Source: an uncultured Flavobacteriaceae bacterium
GTDB lineage: Bacteria; Bacteroidota; Bacteroidia; Flavobacteriales; Flavobacteriaceae
NCBI GenBank assembly: GCA_963704215.1
Contig: CAVPHK010000007.1
Coordinates: 10,823 to 74,822, forward strand
Reading direction: 5' to 3'
Length of the DNA: 64,000 bases
The position numbers and the translations under genes are program-made. Of the stretch, positions 24,101-36,361 are shown in pieces. The first letter of the stretch is position 1. Each line of letters begins with the position of its first letter. The notes under the pieces are model-generated. The model was not told the DNA's origin, did no database searches, and was given only the letters and a program-made list of their open reading frames with translations.

Positions 24101-25729
24101 TTAATTGTTAATTGTTAAAGATGTGAATTTAAAATCGGTTCCATTAAAAAGGCCTTTATCGCTTAATTTTAACGACGGAATTACTAACAAGGCCATAAAC
24201 GACAAAGTCATATAAGGTGCATGTAATTTGCTTCCTAATTGTTTTGCCATACTATCTAATATAGCATATTGTTCTCCAATAGTTTTTCCATCTTTATCAC
24301 TCATAATTCCGGCGACAGGTAATGATACAATTTTTGCTTCAGAATCGCTAACAGCACAAATACCTCCTTTATTTTCAATAATTAAATTAACCGCCTTACA
24401 TATAGATTCGTCGCTAACACCTACCAGCAATAATATTATGCGAATCATGACCAACAGACGATGCGATGGCGCCTTTTTTAAGTCCGAAATTTTTAATAAA
24501 TGCCACGGCTGGTTTTTCATTTTTATAGCGATTAACAACCGACATCTTCAATATATCTTTACCAGTATTTGAAACCAGATTGCCATCAACTATTAAGGCG
24601 TCTTCAATTAATTCGTTTGTAACTAATTGCCCTTCTAAAGCTTCTATAACCCTGATTTTATTAGCTGAAGATTCCAATTTAAAATCTGAAATTTCCTTTT
24701 TATTACAGTCGAAATTATTCAGGTTTTCAAATGATACGGGTTTAATTAACGATTCACCATTATTAAAAACCAACTCCCCATTTATATACGTTTGAAGCGT
24801 TTTAAAATTTGTTAAATCTTCAACTACAATGCAATCGGCAGTATCACCAACTTGCAATAATCCTACATCTAAGTTATAATGCTTTACAGGGTTAACACAG
24901 GCCATTTGCAAGACTTTAAACACATCAATACCTTTTGCCACAGCTCGAGCGCAAAGCTTGTTTATATGATTGATAATTAAATCGTCTGGATGTTTATCAT
25001 CACTACAAAACATCATGTTTTCAAAATACTCTGGAACCAAATCTATTAGAGCATCAAAATTTTTAGCGGCACTTCCTTCGCGGATTAAGATTTTCATGCC
25101 TTTTTGAAGTTTTTCTAACGCTTCATCATAAGTAAAACATTCGTGATCGGTAGTAATTCCAGCATTGATGTACTTGGTAATATTGTTTCCCCTTAACCCC
25201 GGTGCATGACCATCAACAGGTTTATCATATTTTTTTGCCCAATCAATTTTCTTTAAAACCTCGGCATCATCAAACAGAACACCTGGATAATTCATCATTT
25301 CCGTTAAATATTTGATATCTGGATTTTCTAAAAGGACTCTTACAGCTTCAGAATCTATAACCGCGCCAGCCGATTCAAAAGTGGTTGCCGGCACACAAGA
25401 TGGTGCACCAAAATTAAACTTAAATGGTACTTTTTTACCATTTTCAATCATAAATTCAACTCCTTGAACTCCTAAAACATTGGCTATTTCATGTGGATCT
25501 GAAACCGTTGCCACGGTGCCATGTGTCACTGCTAAACGCGCAAATTCACTTGGCACCAACATAGAACTTTCTATATGAATGTGGGCATCAACAAAACCGG
25601 GTAGAATATAATTTTTCGTTAGCATGTTCCTTTTCAAGAATTGAGGTGATTCTTCCTTCTTTCAAAAGTTATTTCACCTTTAAAAATGCGTTTGTTTTTA
25701 ATATCTACTATTTGCCCTTGTAGTTTCAA
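24101..25729 (-). CDS. ade: Adenine deaminase (frameshifts near 25640 and 24420)
   Basis: [50 protein letters not shown]; TTG start [10 protein letters not shown] at 25729. Confidence 0.88.
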
Positions 25730-27214: not shown

Positions 27215-27907
27215 ATGGGCTCAATAGATAAACTTAACGAAAAAGCAACACAAGCTGCTTTCGATAAAAAAGTAGTTTCTGCATCTCAACAACTACATCC
27301 TTATGTTAAACACCGCCTTTATATAGCACAATCTATGGGAGTTATACCAAAAAACATGTATTCTTCTAGTGGGGTTATTGATGAAGGTATCGCCAAATTT
27401 TATGAAAATGGGTACGACATTGATATTGAACCTAATGCTTTAAAACTAAAACTATTTAAGTTTGTTGATGACGAATTAGATGCTATTTTTAAAAAGGAGG
27501 ATTTTCATAAAAACACGGTTAGTACTAATGCTATTTTAATAGAAGAATTAGATGCTTTAGAAGAAAAATATACGATTGATGATGGTTTTGACTTTGTTAT
27601 GAATGATGAGTTAAATGATATTTCTTATCAACAAGACCGCAAGCACAAGCACTTGTTTGTATATAATGAAGATGAAAATTCTGTGTTATCGGCCTTTGAT
27701 GCAGATGATGTCGCCGAAAATAAATCGAAAGAATTATTGGGTGGCATTTATAGCTGGTTACCATTAAATGTATCTGGAGTTATTGATTTGCTAGTTTTTG
27801 GAAAATTAAATTTTGAAGAAATAGCGAAAGTAAAATCTATTGAAGTTAAGCGTGTAGAATTTATATACGAAGAGGTTAAAAACAAATTTAAAGACCATTT
27901 AGATTAG
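27215..27907 (+). CDS. Hypothetical protein with weak sigma-70 region 4-like C-terminus
   Basis: 230-aa ORF; LNFEEIAKVKSIEVKRVE resembles a region 4 HTH. Confidence 0.6.
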   Translation: MGSIDKLNEKATQAAFDKKVVSASQQLHPYVKHRLYIAQSMGVIPKNMYSSSGVIDEGIAKFYENGYDIDIEPNALKLKLFKFVDDELDAIFKKEDFHKNTVSTNAILIEELDALEEKYTIDDGFDFVMNDELNDISYQQDRKHKHLFVYNEDENSVLSAFDADDVAENKSKELLGGIYSWLPLNVSGVIDLLVFGKLNFEEIAKVKSIEVKRVEFIYEEVKNKFKDHLD

Positions 27908-29198
27908 TCTTCTAAAACCTGTCGCATTGCTTTGGCTTTAACCAAACATTCTTCATATTCTTTATGTGGGTCGCTTTTAGCTGTAATGGCGCCACCTACA
28001 GAGTAAGAAATGTATTTTTTTGTTTCATTATATAAAATACTGCGTATCACCACATTAAAATCGAAATCGCCTGTAGGCGAAAAATAACCAACAGCGCCAG
28101 AATAAAGTCCGCGTTTAGTTTCTTCTAAAGCTTCAATAATTTTCATTGCTGAAATTTTTGGCGCGCCGGTCATGCTTCCCATCGGGAAGGTGCTTTTTAT
28201 AATATCGATAGGATGCATAGATGATTCTACTTTTGATTTAATGGTTGAAATCATTTGATGAACCTGATCGAATGTGTAAATTTTACAAAGTTCTTCAACC
28301 TCAACACTGCCTTTAATGGCTGTTTTAGATAAATCGTTCCGCACCAAATCTACAATCATGATATTTTCGCTGCGTTCCTTATTATTATTCAACAAATCGG
28401 TTTTTAGTTTTAAATCTTTTACTTTATTTAAAGAACGTTTTGCAGTTCCTTTTATGGGTTGTGAAACGATTGTTGTCCCTTCCTTTTTTAAATAGCGTTC
28501 TGGAGAGGCAGACAGCAAATACTTATCGTTACACTTTAAAAATGTTGCAAATGGCGGGTTAGAAATAGCATTAAGCTTGTTGTATGTTTCTAACGGATTA
28601 ATTTCGGTGTTTTCGGCATAAAACTCCTGACAAAAATTAGCTTCATAAATATCACCGCGATGAATATGAGCTAGCATTTTGTTTATTTTTTCGAAATATT
28701 CGTCTTTGTGAATACGGAGTTTTATTTTGATGGGATTGTTGACTTTGTTGATATGTTGATTCGTTGATCTGTTTAATCTCTTTCAAATCATTTTCAAAGG
28801 CATCATCAACCATTTTTAAATACTGCATTTCAACCTTATTTCCTTTAATAAAGAATAGTTTTTTTGGTTGAAAAAAATATAAATCTGGAAATTCCAATCC
28901 GTCGAAATTACTGGATTTTAAATTTTCAACAGCATTTTTTAAATCATAAGTCAGATATCCAAAAATCCAATCTTTTGATAGTGTTTGATACTCCTTTAAT
29001 TTGTCAAAAGCTTGCAAAAAAATCGGTTTGAATACTAGTAAACGCGTCAACCGCCAAAACTGCATCATAATTAGAATAATTTTGTTGATAGTTGTTAGAA
29101 TCTAACCATACTACGTCATCAAATTGCTGGCTCCAAATTAAAATCTGATGCTTAAAGTTATTAATATCTTCTGCGATATGGCTAAATGTTGTTCTCAA
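27904..29198 (-). CDS. pabB: Aminodeoxychorismate synthase component I (two frameshifts)
   Basis: WLDSN, FGYLTYDLK, GDIYEAN, SPERY, PIKGT, SENIMIVDLVRNDL, FPMGSMTGAPK across three ORFs. Confidence 0.85.
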
Positions 29199-30166: not shown

Positions 30167-30207
30167 ATAGAATTTTAAGCGTAACTTTGCCAGCTAAATT
30201 GCACACT

Positions 30208-31556
30208 GTGACTTTTCAAGATTTAAATTTAAATACACCATTATACAACGCCTTAAACGATTTAGGCTTTACTACACCAACACCTATACAAGCGGAAGCA
30301 TTTAATGTAGTGAGTTCTGGTACCGATATGGTGGGCATTGCACAAACTGGTACGGGTAAAACCTTTGCCTACATGTTGCCAATTTTAAAAAATTTAAAAT
30401 TTTCAACCCAAGAAACACCGCGTATTTTAATTTTAGTCCCTACCCGCGAACTTGTGGTGCAGGTTGTAGAAGAAATTGAAAAACTTGCCAAATATATAAA
30501 CACTCGAGTACTTGGGGTTTATGGTGGTACCAATATAAATACCCAAAAACAGGCCATTGCCGATGGCTTAGATATTTTAGTTGCAACACCCGGAAGGTTT
30601 TATGATTTAGCTTTAAGCCGCGTTTTACAGTTAAAATCGATACAAAAATTGGTTATTGATGAAGTAGATGTAATGCTAGATTTAGGTTTTAGACATCAGT
30701 TAATTAATATTTTTGATATTCTTCCAGAGAAAAGACAAAACATCATGTTTTCTGCTACCATGACTCATGATGTGGATGTGTTGATTAACGATTTCTTTAA
30801 AAGTCCGGAGCGAGTTTCTATCGCTGTTTCTGGAACACCCTTGAAAACATTTCGCAATCACGTTACGATGTTACTAATTTTTACACGAAGGTTAATTTAC
30901 TAAAATACCTTTTACAGGATACTGAAGCATTCAACAAAGTACTCATATTCGTTTCACAAAAACGAATGGCAGACCGTTTATTTGAGAAATTAGACGAATT
31001 TTTTCATGAAGAATTATGTGTGATTCATTCCAACAAAACACAGAATTACAGACTACGAAGTATTGAGCAATTTAGAAATGGTATCAATCGTATTTTGGTG
31101 GCTACCGATGTCATGGCACGTGGTTTAGATATTGATAACATTTCTCATGTTATTAATTTTGACACACCTGAGTACCCTGAAAACTACATGCACAGAATTG
31201 GAAGAACAGGTCGTGCAGAACGCCAAGGAGCATCTATTGTTTTTTCTACTGAAAATGAACAGGAATATATCGAACAAATCGAGGCATTAATGAAAATGAC
31301 TATTCCGAAAATAGATTTTCCTGAAGACGTTGAAATCTCTACAGAATTAATTGAAGAAGAACGTCCGCAAATAAAAGAACATTATAACCCAATTAAGCGT
31401 ACCGATGAAAATATGCCTGGTCCGGCATTTCATGAGAAAAAAGATAAAAATAAAAAAGAAAATTTAGGAGGGTCGTATAAATTTAAAATTGCTGCGAAGT
31501 ACAAAAAACCTAAAACTCGGGGGGATAAGAATTATAATAAACGGAAAAAGAAATAG
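30208..31556 (+). CDS. DEAD/DEAH-box RNA helicase (frameshift near 30845)
   Basis: TPIQ, AQTGTGKT, PTREL, TPGR, DEVD, SAT; then ARGLD and HRIGRTGR in the second ORF; GTG start behind TAACTTTG. Confidence 0.9.
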
Positions 31557-31622
31557 TATTCGGTGACAGTCACAGTTTTCAGGTGTTAGCGTTTTTATGA
31601 ATTAATATTTTAAGAATTATAA

Positions 31623-31649
31623 TGGATTCCTGCCTGCGCAGGAATGACA
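31623..31649. repeat. REP-like palindrome GGATTCCTGCCTGCGCAGGAATGACA
   Basis: ATTCCTGC-ctgc-GCAGGAAT hairpin with TGACA tail. Confidence 0.6.
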
Positions 31650-31655
31650 AAAATG

Positions 31656-31707
31656 ACCTAAAACTCGAGGGGATAAGTATTATAATAAACGGAATAAGAA
31701 GAAGTAG
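31656..31707 (+). repeat. Diverged direct repeat of the helicase 3' end (31508-31556)
   Basis: Encodes PKTRGDKYYNKRNKKK* versus PKTRGDKNYNKRKKK*. Confidence 0.9.
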
Positions 31708-31840
31708 GATTAGCGGTTACGTATCATAGTGCGGGTTTGTGTGCGAGGATTTCCCGCGGGAAAATCAGAAGCTAGCAAACGAGCAACGTCCTTTTGTTTA
31801 GCCTAAAATAGTAATTTTTTATTACTGTGTTGTAAACAGT
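31708..31840 (-). mobile_element. attC-like site 1 (degenerate)
   Basis: Starts 3 nt after the stop of 31844..32479 with ACTGTTTACAAC (minus strand); central GATTTCCC-gc-GGGAAAATC hairpin; ends ...AACCG/CTAATC. Confidence 0.6.
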
Positions 31841-31843
31841 TTT

Positions 31844-32479
31844 TTATTCACATAAGAGGTTATAATCATCTACAATTTGAGCTATATCATAATCTTCATA
31901 TAACTCATTATCTATATAAGACAAAACATCAGGGCAATCAGAAAAGTATTTTTTTGCATAGTTTTTAAAAGTTCGAAGATTTAAGCCAATGCCATCGGAT
32001 TCATTGATTACACGAGTTGCAACGGTTTCATTTTCGCGAATCATATAAAACTCTTGATATTTTTCAATTTTTTTGTTGCCGAAAGGGTTATTGTCCGTTG
32101 GTATTAATGAATTTCTTCCAATTTTGATTGTTCTTACATAAAGCTTTACTTTTCCATTTCTGATTAACTTAAATATAGCCATTCTTTTATTAGAAATTGC
32201 TACATACTCATAGTAACCTAAATTTGGATCGAATGTCGCAAAAAAGACTTTGTCCACTTCTGTCTCATCGAATTTTTTCTTATTTCCTTTTTCGTCTTTT
32301 TTATATTCAAGTTTAGTACTTGGTATTGAAAGTAAACCATGAGTAACCATTGGTATTTTTAATAGCCCTTTTAGGGTTTCTCCATTTTTCAAAACTAATT
32401 TCCCTGGAGTCCAGTCATATTGACTGTAACTAAAAGAATAGAAGAGAATGAAAATGATTAAAATAATTTTTCTTGACAT
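31844..32479 (-). CDS. Secreted hypothetical protein (cassette 1 cargo)
   Basis: Signal peptide MSRKIILIIFILFYSFSYSQ; GKLVLKNGETLKG and YFSDCP motifs typical of Bacteroidota hypothetical proteins. Confidence 0.8.
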   Translation of the reverse strand: MSRKIILIIFILFYSFSYSQYDWTPGKLVLKNGETLKGLLKIPMVTHGLLSIPSTKLEYKKDEKGNKKKFDETEVDKVFFATFDPNLGYYEYVAISNKRMAIFKLIRNGKVKLYVRTIKIGRNSLIPTDNNPFGNKKIEKYQEFYMIRENETVATRVINESDGIGLNLRTFKNYAKKYFSDCPDVLSYIDNELYEDYDIAQIVDDYNLLCE

Positions 32480-32490
32480 TTCTTATTCAA

Positions 32491-32631
32491 ATTGTTTACA
32501 ACGGTCTCGGCTATGAGTAGTGGCGTGGTTTGGCACTTAACTTTGCAAGTACACACCAAGCTGAAAATCCGCGAGGATTTTCAGAAGCAGGCGAGAACAA
32601 GCAATTACTTATAGCCATTGTGGCCAGCAGT
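32491..32631 (-). mobile_element. attC-like site 2
   Basis: AAC-ggtctc-GGCTATGAGTAGTGGC ... GCAATTACTTATAGCC-att-GTG imperfect palindrome; perfect central hairpin CTGAAAATCC-GCGA-GGATTTTCAG. Confidence 0.7.
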
Positions 32632-32634
32632 ATT

Positions 32635-34128
32635 TTATTTTCTTTCAATTTTCACTAATCCTTGTCTCGTTGACAAATACAAATCTCCGTTATTGTCAAA
32701 AGTCATAGTTGAAATATAAGAGGTAGGTATTTCAGAGTTTTCTGTATGATAATTCTCCCAATTGCCATTCAAATCATATCTAACCAATCCTGCTCTATCG
32801 GTTGAAATCCAAATAATATTTTCTTTTTTGTCATAAAGAACACACGTTGCATGGTTAAAGGGCATACCAGAATTTTCAGTTGTAAATTGTTTGAAGTTAC
32901 CATTTACATCTCGTATTGCTATTCCCTCGTCATTGTTAACTTGCTTTTTGTTTTTTCTGTCAAATTCGTAAAGTGTAAAGTATAGGTTTCCATTTTCGTC
33001 TTCGTCCATCGAAGTGATGCATTTTCCTTTTAAAACTGTTGATGATTTCTCGAAATTTGTTACTTGATTATTTTCATCAATCATTGCTGTTCCATCGTAA
33101 GTTCCAATCCAAATTCTGTTTTTAGAATCTCTTTTAGCAAATGAAACTCTATCTCCAGGTAAGTCTTTGAATAAGTTCTTATCAATTTTTGACCAATTAC
33201 CATCTTTAAGAATAGTTATTCCATTTTTTGAGCAGAAAAATAACTCGCCTGTTTTTGAGTTGTTAACAATATTATGCGCAGAATTAATCCCAATTTGCGT
33301 TGAGTCATATTTTACCCATTTATCATTATCATAACTGTATATATTGTTTTTAGCATAAATCCATTTTACATTATTGTTATCTGTTGCTAATTCGTAATAG
33401 CCGAAGTATTTACCTTTATCAGAAATATTTTGTTCGGCATTTTTAAATTCGCTTCCATCAAAAGTTACTAAACCTTGGCTGACGGTGACCCATATTAAAC
33501 CATTTTTATCAATAGAAATATGGTCATTCCAATTATTGGGTAAATTTGAGTTTTTTGAGTTCCAAACAGTTATTTTATAATTGCTTAAGCTTTCGTTCTT
33601 ATAAACGTAATTTTCATTATAGATTTCTGGGCTATTTGGCTTGTCAAATGATTTCTCGAAAGCCTCTTTATCAACTCTCTCAATTTGTCCTACAATTTTG
33701 TTGTTATCTACTTTGAAACCAATATTAATTGAAGATTTTTCTTCTATTTTACCGTTTGTTATTGCAGGTGTCCAATTTTTGAATCGATTCAGCTCTTTAA
33801 TTAATTTCCGCGTTATGAAGTTTTTTGATTGGTCTGTATGACTTAAAACACAAGCTCGTCCTTTTGAATCAACGAGAACTTGAAACATAACAGCACCTTT
33901 AATTCCATCCAATTTTAGTTCATCGTTCAATTTTTCTTGAAGGTTTAAAAACTCTTTTTCTTGATAACCAGCTTTGGTGTCTCCGCAGTCTAGACAAAAT
34001 TTATCAGTCTTACAGCTGTCTAATTTTACAGGGAAAAGATTTTGGGCGTTTAATGAGAATGTAATTCCCATAAATAATATAAAAAAAGGTAATTTCATTA
34101 AGTCAATTTTTTCTATGTGTTTGTTCAT
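32635..34128 (-). CDS. Secreted protein with TonB-C-like N-terminal region and beta-propeller (two-component-regulator propeller-like) repeats (cassette 2 cargo)
   Basis: Signal peptide ...TFSLNAQ; KGAVMFQVLVDSKG...WTPAITNGK; repeats NSNLPNN, NSGMPFN, NSEIPTS, DSKNRIWIGT. Confidence 0.75.
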   Translation of the reverse strand: MNKHIEKIDLMKLPFFILFMGITFSLNAQNLFPVKLDSCKTDKFCLDCGDTKAGYQEKEFLNLQEKLNDELKLDGIKGAVMFQVLVDSKGRACVLSHTDQSKNFITRKLIKELNRFKNWTPAITNGKIEEKSSINIGFKVDNNKIVGQIERVDKEAFEKSFDKPNSPEIYNENYVYKNESLSNYKITVWNSKNSNLPNNWNDHISIDKNGLIWVTVSQGLVTFDGSEFKNAEQNISDKGKYFGYYELATDNNNVKWIYAKNNIYSYDNDKWVKYDSTQIGINSAHNIVNNSKTGELFFCSKNGITILKDGNWSKIDKNLFKDLPGDRVSFAKRDSKNRIWIGTYDGTAMIDENNQVTNFEKSSTVLKGKCITSMDEDENGNLYFTLYEFDRKNKKQVNNDEGIAIRDVNGNFKQFTTENSGMPFNHATCVLYDKKENIIWISTDRAGLVRYDLNGNWENYHTENSEIPTSYISTMTFDNNGDLYLSTRQGLVKIERK

Positions 34129-34260
34129 ATTACTGGCAACAACAATATAATAAACATTATGTTCATTATACCACTAATTAAGATGTATAAAAACATGTTA
34201 TATATATCTTTCAAAATACGAATATAATAAATATTCACTTACAAAATATTACAGCTTAAA
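34129..34260 (-). mobile_element. attI-like array leader (GTTGCCAGTAAT fused to AT-rich non-attC DNA)
   Basis: The GTT core abuts the ATG of cassette 2 and is complementary to that cassette's downstream end; no attC-like hairpin upstream. Confidence 0.45.
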
Positions 34261-34307: not shown

Positions 34308-35301
34308 TTAATAGTTACTAAAAACCTCATAGGTTATAGCAATGGCTATTTGGTGGTTTGTACCTGCTACATCTTCTAGTTTATAGGCTACTTTAAAATC
34401 GTATTGATTCATCTCTGCAAAATAGTTGCCCGAATTAGGATAGTATAATTGACCAACAATGGGGCTTTCTTGGTACGACCCTGGTGCTACACGCCCAAAT
34501 AATTCAAAAGGATAGAAGTCTTTGTTTACTTCAAAATCTTCATTAAAGCCCACAAACACCGTTGAAAATGGATTTTGGTTATTATTAAATTTAGTAATAA
34601 AATTAGTTTCCATTTTTACAGGTCGAATAAACTTAATTTTGCTATAGTTTAAATTATGGTCTTTAGCTAATCCATTAGTTTATAATTTTCCTCTTTTAAA
34701 GTACCAGAATAATAATCTTGATTGTTTTCTTCGGTTATAAAATTAAAATTATAGGTAACGGTTATAACTTCTTTTTTTAAATTAGCCAATGGCACCATGG
34801 TAAAGGTGCTCACATTGGTCCATAAACTATATTTTTGTGGATAACTTATATCTGTCGATCTTAATCTATAGGCTACAAAAACAGTATCTGTGATAACCCC
34901 ATTATATTGATTTAGACCGATAATAATGAACAAACTGGTTACCGTAACCTGATGAAAAATTATTATTCAACAAATGAAATTTTTCATATTCAAAGCAATC
35001 GTAAGGTTTGTTAAGCTCAATTATTTGAAGTTCGGTATTCCATAAACCATTAGGCAATTCCCATTTAATGTTTACTAACTCATCTGAATAAAATATAGGG
35101 GTGATTGCAGTTTCTGGTGAGGTAATTATAGGCTTTTCGTATTTGGCAAAATATTTCAAGCTATCTGGTGTTGGCATTACCTTTTCGCAAGGATCGGTTG
35201 AAACGGTTGTGAGTATTATCTGAATTATTATCACAAGAAACAATCAATAAAAACAGATGTAGCAAACTTAAAATTGAAAGCGTATTAATTTTAAACACCA
35301 T
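34308..35301 (-). CDS. Hypothetical lipoprotein (three apparent frameshifts)
   Basis: MVFKINTLSILSLLHLFLLIVSC lipobox at 35301; three consecutive co-oriented ORF fragments. Confidence 0.55.
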
Positions 35302-35438
35302 AAATTATAATATAAAATGTGATAAACTAATGTAATTGATTTTTTTCAATTAAAAGAGTGAATTGTCTTATAAAATAAATCATCAATATTTAAACATAAA
35401 AATGTTGTGAGAACGTATGCACTTTCCCGAGCACTTGT

Positions 35439-36361
35439 TTACGGACTTTTATCTGTTTGATTGATATCGAATACAGGAATTTTAACAATTTCGAAGGTTG
35501 CAGATGCCAACATCACTTTTCCGTTTGTTTCTTCTATTCGTTGACCAATAATTTCGTTTAGATCGGTGTTTGGTGCCTCTTCGTTTTTTATAGTCTACAA
35601 TGTATCTTAAATTAAAAGAAATCCAATTATCGGTTAACGTAATGGCAAGTGTGGGGTCTACATTGGCATCTTCAATATAATATTTATCGACTACTTTTTT
35701 CCAATCGGCAATCGATTCCTGAACATATTCAGAAAGATGCTCGGTAGCTACACTAATAATTATAGATTTTGCTAATTCAATATCAGACCCATAGCGAATA
35801 GGTAAATTAAATTCATCCCAAACAAAAGGAAAATCTTGCGAATAGTTATAAACGGGACCGCGAAAAACAAATGCATTACTTAGTTTCACTATTCGACCGC
35901 TATAATTATCGCTAGACACCCATTGCCCAATTTCCATCATCGTTGTATAAATGCTGTCAACATCAATAACATCGCCTTTTATGCCATTAATTTCAATTCT
36001 ATCTCCTGGTTTATAAACACGTACAAAAAATATGTAAAACGACCCTGCAATACTTAAAATTAATTCTTGTAATGTAATGGTAATTCCGGCAGATAACAAG
36101 CCCAATAGCTAAACCAAAATCTTTGATATTACCAGTGAAATATGAGATTGATATGCGTATTAAAAGAATAAATCCAAAAATTTCAATGCCTTTTTGAGAT
36201 TTATAACGAATCAGAAGTGTCTCGGAAATATATATTTTCAAATAGCGTTTAAAAAAGGCAATAATAGAAAACACCAAAACAATCCATAAAAAGTATTTTA
36301 ATAGTTTTACAGATGTTGGATTTTCAATCATCCAATTTTTTATACTTTCAAAAGTATCCAT
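35439..36361 (-). CDS. Small-conductance mechanosensitive channel MscS family (two frameshifts)
   Basis: GLLSAGITITLQE, YKPGDRIEINGIKGDVIDV, YNYS, ASATFEIV. Confidence 0.82.

Follow-up and report, generated by a model that had tools for sequence, protein, structure and literature searches.

A decaying two-cassette array of an integron-like system in a Flavobacteriaceae genome, probably driven by a tyrosine recombinase without the IntI insertion

In integrons, the integrase IntI carries an additional domain specific to it (10.1101/2022.02.06.479319), and the cores of the recombination sites follow the consensus GTTRRRY / RYYYAAC (PMC5027507). Two reports on resistance genes touch on the system presented here. 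In Riemerella anatipestifer, aph(3')-IVb was captured without homology, along with 27 bp of upstream and 140 bp of downstream flank, by a mechanism that the report states to be unexplained (PMC13148043); the role of the 'xerD' gene beside tet(X) variants was likewise left open (PMC7473080). In the parts of these two reports on which we draw, adjacency or an attC-like stem-loop is noted, and no cores, cassettes, attI or enzyme are defined. Our search of the literature found no published description of the system.

We analysed a stretch of 64,000 nucleotides (the window) from an uncultured Flavobacteriaceae bacterium, in which a preliminary description, made from the sequence alone, had read two neighbouring genes as cassettes of a Flavobacteriaceae integron-like system. 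Our analysis supports that reading and confirms a genuine two-cassette integron-like array. The array is a decaying outpost, with an attI-like site left over at its head and two attC-like sites that are both damaged, and comprises the following features:

34138..34211, minus strand: orphan attI-like site, with a 25-bp palindrome (34146-34170), a 5-nt spacer and G^TT (34140/34139)
34129-34140, minus strand: GTTGCCAGTAAT, core before the cassette 1 gene
32502..34139, minus strand: cassette 1, 1638 bp, from the TT of the first core to the G of the next
32635..34128, minus strand: cassette 1 gene, 497 aa; likely start at 34098 (487 aa)
32620-32631, minus strand: ACTGCTGGCCAC, after the cassette 1 ORF (32635-34128)
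32500..32622, minus strand: attC-like site A, 123 nt, between the two genes
32491-32502, minus strand: GTTGTAAACAAT, before the cassette 2 ORF (31844-32479)
31714..32501, minus strand: cassette 2, about 788 bp, its 3' boundary approximate because its 3' site is decayed
31844..32479, minus strand: cassette 2 gene, 211 aa, a Bacteroidota protein of no known family
31829-31840, minus strand: ACTGTTTACAAC, after the cassette 2 ORF
31712..31831, minus strand: attC-like site B, decayed

All the motifs quoted in the preliminary description lie on the minus strand where it had placed them. Its observation that the two ends of each cassette match one another also held, with the counts exchanged: 9/12 for cassette 1 (497 aa) and 11/12 for cassette 2 (211 aa), while cross pairs between the ends of the two cassettes match at 7/12. 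Site A reads, in order, inverse core, 3 nt, a 16-nt left arm (32601-32616), a variable loop, a 16-nt right arm (32509-32524), 6 nt and GTT; its inverse core is CAC, where the family described below has AAC. The arms form 13 Watson-Crick pairs, two G-T pairs (on the plus strand) and one mismatch, and the loop holds a perfect 10-bp hairpin (32561-32584). The wobble-containing arm and the hairpin had both been recognized but had been assigned to the second spacer rather than to the one between the genes (32500-32622), and the mismatch had gone unmentioned. The arm-paired fold of site A has a computed energy of -19.2 kcal/mol on the plus (bottom) strand versus -13.9 on the gene strand, and the intact spacer has fold z-scores of -3.20 (plus) and -1.94 (minus). 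A related spacer does follow the 211-aa gene (profile score 54.5), but this site B has decayed: its AAC inverse core is intact, the right arm is eroded and the GTT lost, no register of 118-129 nt restores the arm pairing, and its fold (z -0.66 / -1.23) is no better than that of shuffles. Rfam gave no match in the window region and only two chance-level matches in four arrays; a terminator scan was at chance level, and a sigma-70 promoter scan, by a tool that does not cover Bacteroidota promoters, returned 15 hits against 15.1 by chance. An unrelated REP-like repeat lies just downstream of the array.

Both spacers belong to a family of palindromic sites of about 123 nt (range in the family 123-190 nt, all asymmetric hairpins). 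The many copies at gene ends that the cassette reading predicted are present, with 35 profile matches in the same genome; a purely structural detector found 15 sites there versus none in one locally shuffled copy. The exact site pattern occurs in 102 of 150 Flavobacteriaceae genomes, and within every array the sites have one orientation. Cassette-specific end matching, which had been described for the window, extends to other copies: 48 of 60 distinct intervals match at no fewer than five of the six positions beyond GTT (shuffles: mean 4.5, maximum 14 in 10,000), although 12 do not, and the same test applied to the two cores of one site succeeds in only 4 of 84. Whole cassettes are also reused, in that the 766-bp and 1669-bp cassettes of contig C12 recur at 98-99% identity in arrays of two other genomes (G009 and G008), behind other sites. 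Were the spacers instead dispersed REP-like or terminator repeats, with genes that arrived otherwise and end matches that are incidental, then the strength of the internal hairpins, the occurrence of lone copies at scattered loci and the REP-like neighbour of the window array would be accounted for. Cassette-specific end matching already contradicts this, as do whole-cassette reuse bounded at GTT, the single orientation per array and published capture ends that fall inside cores (PMC13148043), and we give the idea almost no credence. A search for circle-closing joints in eight contig sets, confined to contigs and disregarding three joints with sides under 30 nt, found none. Among sequencing runs, none contained as much as half of the stretch, and no RNA run was listed as containing it.

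Partners at the crossover share 3 bp only (AAC/GTT). As had been proposed from the window, the cores break the integron rule, with only 12 of 84 distinct sites fitting GTTRRRY / RYYYAAC and seven free bases following GTT, and the core-to-arm spacers of 3 nt and 6 nt are borne out across the family, versus 5-6 unpaired nt on each arm in integrons. Since AAC/GTT alone is common to the partners, strand exchange would need a 3-bp microhomology, as in integrons; each cassette circle would carry a fully complementary core, GTT-N7-A at one end and C-N7-AAC at the other. The arms of the 84 sites comprise 1098 Watson-Crick pairs, 204 G-T pairs on the bottom strand, four on the top strand and 38 others. 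Their variable columns covary (mutual information up to 1.6 bits, for example a column pair joined in 84/84 sites by four pair types). Columns 12 and 17, by contrast, are fixed as A.C in 81/84 and 78/84 sites. No extrahelical bases were seen, all 16 arm columns pairing without gaps in the 84 sites, a result favoured by the choice of these sites with ungapped arm profiles. In computed folds the bottom strand does better in 78/84 sites when folded freely and in 81/83 when arm-paired.

From these observations, we consider it probable that the window holds a two-cassette array of an integron-like gene-capture system in which a tyrosine recombinase, co-oriented with the cassettes, with a predicted HARP-like domain but no IntI insertion, cuts and joins them at GTT while the bottom strand is folded. 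The fixed A.C mismatches, which become G-T pairs on the bottom strand only, would together with that domain likely replace extrahelical bases and the IntI insertion in the choice of strand. The same cassettes and recombinase might instead work through sites in duplex form, as Xer and phage integrases do, with the palindrome serving as protein-binding arms or as an RNA stem and not as a folded DNA substrate. This would suit an enzyme without the IntI insertion, whose best solved sequence relatives are archaeal XerA, as well as arms without extrahelical bases. The strand bias is, moreover, partly compositional, slid registers being also bottom-heavy in G-T (e.g. 225/59 and 153/5), and the arm-paired fold is often not that of minimum energy, coming within 1 kcal of it in 43/83 sites (37 for the top strand). 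Yet the arms covary while the fixed A.C positions persist, and the 3 bp shared at the crossover are too little for ordinary duplex strand exchange. Insertions point the same way: a group II intron lies antisense inside the inverse core in 6/6 copies examined and IS110 lies antisense directly after AACA in 4/4 full copies, which is the targeting practised by parasites of attC-type hairpins and mirrors the pattern of single-stranded attC, for which IIC-attC introns and IS1111-attC elements have been described (PMC3001079, in the part used here). We therefore regard double-stranded sites as unlikely and retain folded bottom-strand recombination as the preferred reading.

The window holds no recombinase gene or remnant (best tblastn E 0.12), in agreement with the preliminary description, which had, however, missed the attI-like site before cassette 1. 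The tyrosine recombinase that it anticipated at the head of such arrays exists as one copy elsewhere in the genome (contig C11, 11359-12543) and in congeners. This enzyme has PF00589 and PF13495 domains, and the catalytic R-K-H-R-H-Y residues (R232, K257, H321, R324, H347, Y356) are invariant in 14 recombinases. Sites lie downstream on the same strand in 13 of 17 full-length congeneric copies, and the other four reach a contig edge within 1.3 kb; the C11 orthologue in one congener (G004, 88%) precedes a different first cassette. The IntI insertion (about 42-43 aa), to which the preliminary description had drawn attention, is absent: the alignment to IntI4 (2a3v) falls into two pieces that skip it, and the spacing from K..R to HxxRH is 58-61 aa versus 100 in 8/8 correctly extracted IntI. 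The enzyme scores below cut-off for TIGR02249 (203.7 < 265), NF040815 (208 bits < 220) and the XerC and XerD equivalogs (176.8 < 335 and 175.3 < 330), and the genome has separate XerC/D-like genes. Its closest solved relatives by sequence are archaeal XerA (5hxy, E 6e-43; 4a8e). A quick tree placed the recombinase and IntI in one clade of support 100, apart from XerC/D; four of its 12 IntI rows were mis-extracted (two dropped, two junk rows), and because inner support was low we claim no branching order. It is likely that the system is driven by this recombinase without the hallmark IntI segment.

The recombinase has an extra N-terminal domain of about 80 aa, which we predict to be HARP/XPB-like. 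Its best PDB profile match is 4o66 (E 0.03), and Pfam HARP appears in 7 of 43 N-termini (best E 9e-4). The top fold matches of the modelled domain are SMARCAL1 HARP, the XPB damage-recognition domain and the T4 UvsW N-terminus (Z 7.1, 6.9, 6.5), with 4o66 at Z 4.3 (rmsd 1.9 over 49). HARP, the XPB damage-recognition domain and the UvsW N-terminus form one structure-recognition family. These domains are helicase-linked, whereas here the domain is fused to a recombinase, and the scores are modest: the HARP match is weak by each measure, Z of 4.3-7.1 being a range that the tool calls common. Pfam at loose thresholds gave nothing consistent on eight single N-termini, the signal coming from the 43-row alignment only, and matches in a whole-protein fold search were filled by recombinase cores. 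The domain is present in 21/21 family genomes with at least 15 pattern sites (of 150; Fisher p 2e-4, the genomes being kin and not independent). Against a strict association, 26 of the 150 genomes have sites without a domain match and 26 the reverse; relatives that lack a domain match (L084, L089) are followed by cassette chains too, two domain-bearing loci (L044, L056) showed no cassette chain, and in G728 the array is about 24 kb away from the recombinase, which is itself followed by nothing.

One could also see an ordinary CALIN here, with cassettes placed by a canonical IntI, since lost or residing in other hosts, and the HARP-type recombinase a bystander. The crossover AAC/GTT is shared with integrons, 78 of 251 phylum genomes pass the cut-off for IntI (TIGR02249), and the genome studied is 87% complete. 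Nearly all of those 78 are outside this class, however, and 0 of 17 genomes of the family exceed the cut-off, against 102/150 with sites; the sites lack both extrahelical bases and GTTRRRY, and a HARP-type gene immediately precedes the first cassette, the junction between them being attI-like. We judge a canonical IntI very unlikely to have built these arrays.

That array-head junction is a non-attC GTT junction with a palindrome and a putative attI role: the GTT of the first cassette lies 33-136 nt past the recombinase stop in 11 loci (993 nt on C11), preceded by the palindrome. In the window, the 70 bp or so that precede cassette 1 share 82% identity, over 68-77 nt, with post-recombinase DNA of two congeners (G010, L017, E 1e-11; G007, L018, E 3e-13), where the matching stretch runs from about 10 nt past the stop codon to the first cassette's GTT; no second copy was found in the genome itself. 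This identity leads us to take the stretch as an attI-like site now without its recombinase gene and, given that it is kept while both attC-like sites are damaged, the array is not merely integrase-less. An insertion of cassette 1 at a random secondary GTT was dropped once the homology was found. Both cassettes would have entered at this site, cassette 2 being the earlier arrival if the usual order applied; the recombinase gene may have been lost, or the enzyme may have acted in trans, and later decay of the sites would have fixed both genes in place.

Relatives show both cassette gain and loss at the locus and cassette reuse elsewhere, as had been suggested. Both cassettes are missing at the same locus from the closest relative, and cassette 1 is absent there in 14/14 congeners compared, two of which end early at contig ends. 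By sequence identity, cassette 1 is traceable to other genomes with exact boundaries at GTT: it recurs in assemblies X4 (about 94%) and X14 (about 91%), where the DNA beyond 32502/32500 is unlike that of the window and the 5' ends read TGCCAGCA. The first ATG of its gene is missing in X14, which fits the later start. The protein carries Reg_prop beta-propeller repeats (PF07494, E 3e-13; PDB 3v9f and 4a2l, E about 1e-12) that resemble the sensor part of hybrid two-component systems; PADLOC found no defence match, and two loci with homologues at 27-33% (L028, L029) have no cassette ends. The cassette 2 gene has no Pfam or PADLOC match, its Atlas neighbours are unnamed, and it occurs in 11 of 400 family genomes, with 30 homologues. 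Two homologues (L147, 50% protein identity, inside a five-site array; L155, 32%) share its GTTGTAAACA ends, and the unit is also present in contig X2 (31815-32503). As a point against the cassette reading, 9 of 13 other homologue loci, plus L144, have no cassette ends, L156 being of another type. Both proteins have hydrophobic N-termini by eye; secretion is putative.

In related bacteria, tet(X) and other resistance genes are likely captured by the system as well. On the Riemerella plasmid NZ_CP073240, 8 of 15 genes examined lie in seven cassettes whose ends match (aadS, tet(X) twice, a RelE pair, estT, a phosphotransferase and aph(3')); two others have a site behind only and five have none. 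On the plasmid copy, the published aph(3')-IVb capture ends in the 5' GTT at its second T and in the 3' GTT after the GT, its flanks totalling 167, equal to the predicted 28 + 139, although the portion of the report used here names no recombinase for the experiment (PMC13148043). The recombinase family also includes, in shortened form, TnpF ('xerD'), which accompanies tet(X3)/tet(X5) on plasmids of Acinetobacter. It is 44% identical to the C11 protein and groups with full-length relatives that bear the N-terminal domain; downstream come a palindrome and then GTT-N7-ATTT before tet(X3). Only 4/7 positions agree between the ends of tet(X3) there, however, and tet(X5) is not followed by a site.

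Both the definition of integrons and the search for them rely on a single integrase domain and a single site geometry. The present system has neither and yet is found in 102/150 family genomes, so that a large pool of cassettes would escape standard tools. We lean towards the wider hypothesis that a second kind of integron, so far undescribed, operates in Bacteroidia, one in which a tyrosine recombinase with a HARP domain but no IntI insertion acts on wobble-marked single-stranded hairpins; that it occurs in about two thirds of Flavobacteriaceae genera and is maybe the stock from which IntI arose; and that it is the missing mechanism of homology-free resistance capture in Riemerella and of the first mobilisation of tet(X), the Acinetobacter 'xerD' neighbour being a shortened copy. 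This makes testable both how Riemerella integrates resistance genes without homology (PMC13148043) and what 'xerD' does beside tet(X) variants (PMC7473080), and provides a natural point of comparison when asking how folded single-stranded DNA became a substrate of tyrosine recombinases. What the window itself contributes is its orphan attI-like site, together with a cassette that can be followed, with exact boundaries, into other genomes.

Compared with known systems, the likeness is greatest to integrons (IntI/attI/attC), with which this one shares single-gene, promoter-poor cassettes in one orientation, the AAC/GTT crossover, an imperfect palindrome favouring the bottom strand, an attI-like site beside the recombinase, orphan arrays, and inverse cores that take antisense insertions of group II introns and IS110. 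The closest are sedentary chromosomal integrons with a co-oriented intI (Treponema type) and CALINs. Unlike in integrons, the recombinase lacks the IntI additional domain and has an extra N-terminal domain of about 80 aa, the sites have a 16-bp arm with fixed A.C/G-T positions instead of extrahelical bases, and the attI-like site has a palindrome of about 25 bp and lies 3' of the recombinase gene. Archaeal XerA and NF040815 ('site-specific tyrosine recombinase/integron integrase') likewise lack the insertion and are the best sequence matches, whereas XerC/D-dif modules use a 28-bp dif in place of 123-190-nt asymmetric hairpins and cassette arrays. The tet(X3)/tet(X5) 'xerD'/TnpF setting and gene capture in Riemerella anatipestifer share with it the recombinase family and ends in GTT cores.

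BLAST and an iterated profile search of the genome to which the window belongs returned 35 matches to the palindromic spacers of the window array: 19 on contig C12, eight on C13, four on C11, two at the window locus and single ones on C1 and C15. Orientation is uniform inside each cluster, and the majority of sites begin a few bases past a stop codon, which bears out the expectation of many spacer copies tied to gene ends. Rfam holds no family matching the site sequences. From 150 other genomes of the family, sampled as one per genus, an exact degenerate pattern retrieved 940 sites in 102 genomes, and the reversed pattern, used as a control, retrieved none. The arrays at fetched loci L002-L004 include a long site subtype (180-195 nt) and two small gene pairs that, judged by eye, are toxin-antitoxin-like. 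The C13 array (L004) and an array with other cassettes in congener G009 (L025) both lie behind one housekeeping gene.

The motifs, open reading frames and spacers quoted in the preliminary description of the two-cassette array are all where it placed them; its end-match counts were interchanged, the actual values being 9/12 for cassette 1 (the 497-aa gene) and 11/12 for cassette 2 (the 211-aa gene). The well-paired arm, in the site between the genes, does contain the two G-T pairs described, together with one mismatch that had gone unmentioned, and the inverse core of this site is CAC rather than AAC. At the last site, after cassette 2, both the GTT and the arm pairing are gone. The window was said to lack an integrase, and we found no recombinase gene remnant in it. 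Genes at 24101-25637, 27904-29068, 30187-31556 and 34308-36361 (adenine deaminase-like, helicase, mscS-like and a gene upstream of the array) are split by frameshifts, probably assembly errors because the genes are intact in relatives. About 60 nt of the helicase gene end are duplicated (88%) just downstream (31500-31710), and the copies flank a short G+C-rich inverted repeat (31625-31648) of a distinct REP-like family, which has dozens of genome-wide copies and is unrelated to the cassette sites.

Using arm profiles, we called 103 sites in this genome and 28 loci, 84 of them with both cores present. In 48 of 60 distinct neighbouring-site intervals, at least five of the six bases that follow GTT agree with the opposite end of that interval (shuffled: mean 4.5, maximum 14), whereas the cores within one site agree with each other in only 4/84; this is in line with the cassette-specific ends proposed from the window. 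The 12 unmatched intervals are mostly long, and the long ones may conceal an uncalled site. The complete end is GTT-N7-A-TTT against AAA-C-N7-AAC, in which position 11 (A against C) is never complementary. Departure from the GTTRRRY rule is general, with only 12/84 cores fitting it, and the unusual core-to-arm spacing recurs: AAC, 3 nt and a 16-nt arm, with the opposite arm stopping 6 nt ahead of GTT.

Over these 84 sites, the arms form 1098 Watson-Crick pairs and contain 38 mismatches; G-T pairs number 204 for the bottom strand and 4 for the top, a slid-register control attributing part of this bottom-strand bias to composition. Free columns covary and two columns are fixed as A.C; the arms have no extruded bases in this set, which was chosen by ungapped profiles. 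In computed folds with the arms paired, the bottom strand, opposite to the genes, is the more stable in 81/83 sites, as anticipated, although this fold lies close to the minimum-energy fold in only 43 of the 83.

The genome encodes four tyrosine recombinases. One, a 394-aa protein, is encoded on C11 immediately ahead of an array that reads in the same direction; an HU-like gene separates the two. A recombinase beside such an array had been sought, and this one lacks the IntI-specific insertion. Its alignment with IntI4 falls into two pieces separated by a ~43-aa gap, and the motif spacing is 58-61 aa vs 100 in IntI. The HU-HIG gene (L001:7772-8179), which precedes the attI-like site, is missing from the orthologous locus of G004, the closest relative. 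Homologues of the recombinase occur in 11/14 congeners; 13 of the 17 full-length copies that we fetched stand at the head of an array, and the other four run into contig ends. In a quick tree, IntI and the array recombinases form one clade with XerC/D outside. IntI above cut-off was found in 0/17 genomes of the family and 78/251 of the phylum, and therefore the phylum overall is not integron-poor.

The recombinase carries an extra N-terminal domain of ~80 aa (structure model pLDDT 86), whose best matches, every one modest, are XPB, UvsW, MotA and the HARP domains of SMARCAL1. Among the 150 genomes, domain and sites occur together in 76, sites only in 26, the domain only in 26 and neither in 22; all 21 genomes with at least 15 sites have the domain. 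Far longer family members (575-718 aa; L078, L081, L085, L086, L090) start with the same domain; the only sign of extra copies of it is two weak matches in L060. Gemmatimonadota and Ignavibacteriota records (L084, L089, L096) contain chains of end-matched cassettes behind related recombinases in which the domain profile gives no match. A 115-137-aa gene with CxxC motifs, possibly a regulator or partner, adjoins many array recombinases, mostly divergently (L013-L018, L021-L024 and genome G728).

Gain or loss of cassettes among relatives was evident at the window locus: in G004 (90% DNA identity) the helicase gene abuts mscS and the ~3.9 kb holding the array is missing, and neither cassette occurs there in any of the 14 congeners fetched, two of which ended early at contig ends. 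The region just past the helicase gene is a genus-wide insertion hot spot (L030-L043): G012 has a Cas9-type locus there, G010 has further decayed sites, and G009, in which cassettes are absent from this spot, has a 332-aa homologue of window 34308-35243. Downstream of recombinase genes, a ~25-bp palindrome takes the place of an arm ahead of the GTT of the first cassette. Because the 70 bp in front of cassette 1 share 82% identity with this stretch in G010 and G007, where it starts ~10 nt past the recombinase stop, the window retains an attI-like site from a recombinase clade other than that of C11. Since the assembly is 87% complete, the cognate gene possibly lies elsewhere in the genome.

Cassette 1 occurs in two isolate-size assemblies, X4 (~94%) and X14 (~91%). 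In both, the DNA past 32502 or 32500 is dissimilar and the 5' ends re-establish the end matching; in X14 the cassette is preceded by an attC-type spacer. It is present also in assemblies X3, X5 and X7. Two cassettes of C12 are found again, at 98-99%, in arrays of other species. Homologues of the cassette 2 gene with an identical core share 50% and 32% identity, and others are ordinary genes; one (L156) lies between copies of a different, very short repeat whose core is GTT/AAC and which may belong to a further cassette system.

A protein search with the C11 recombinase matched 85 plasmids, 50 of them from Acinetobacter, where the match is a short TnpF/'xerD' ahead of tet(X3) or tet(X5). This protein clusters with full-length relatives, 8/10 of those tested having the N-terminal domain. 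Between it and tet(X3) lie a palindrome and GTTATGTGCCATTT; the far end of tet(X3) matches at only 4/7. On a Riemerella plasmid, 8/15 genes lie within seven end-matched cassettes, with sites of 123-125 nt and the geometry of our family. The recombinase family occurs in 71/121 genomes of Riemerella's family, and in G728, where the RelE cassette stretch is present at 100%, a full-length recombinase lies ~24 kb from an array. According to PMC13148043, aph(3')-IVb integrated homology-free beside relE-hthR together with 27 bp of upstream and 140 bp of downstream sequence; its authors note an attC-like stem-loop and term the mechanism unresolved. Mapped on the plasmid copy, both captured ends fall inside GTT cores, assuming the same start and flanks in the donor strain, which the paper states for the downstream flank.

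Anatomy, end matching, cassette reuse, linkage to a recombinase and the missing IntI insertion are observed directly, and we have little doubt that the window units are mobile cassettes of an integron-like system. It is likely that, in addition, recombination would proceed on the bottom-strand hairpin at AAC, with the strand chosen through the fixed wobbles and the N-terminal domain, that cassettes would be loaded at the attI-like site, and that the window sites decayed afterwards. We found no published description in the literature searched, most subscription journals being outside its coverage; supplements listing Bacteroidota CALINs are possible for PMC4889954, 10.1101/2022.02.06.479319 and 10.1101/2024.07.02.601686. 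A group II intron and an IS110 have inserted antisense at the inverse core of our sites, the pattern described in integrons for IIC-attC introns and IS1111-attC elements (PMC3001079). The system differs from integrons in IntI, core consensus, extrahelical bases and spacer length, yet it appears to work like one.
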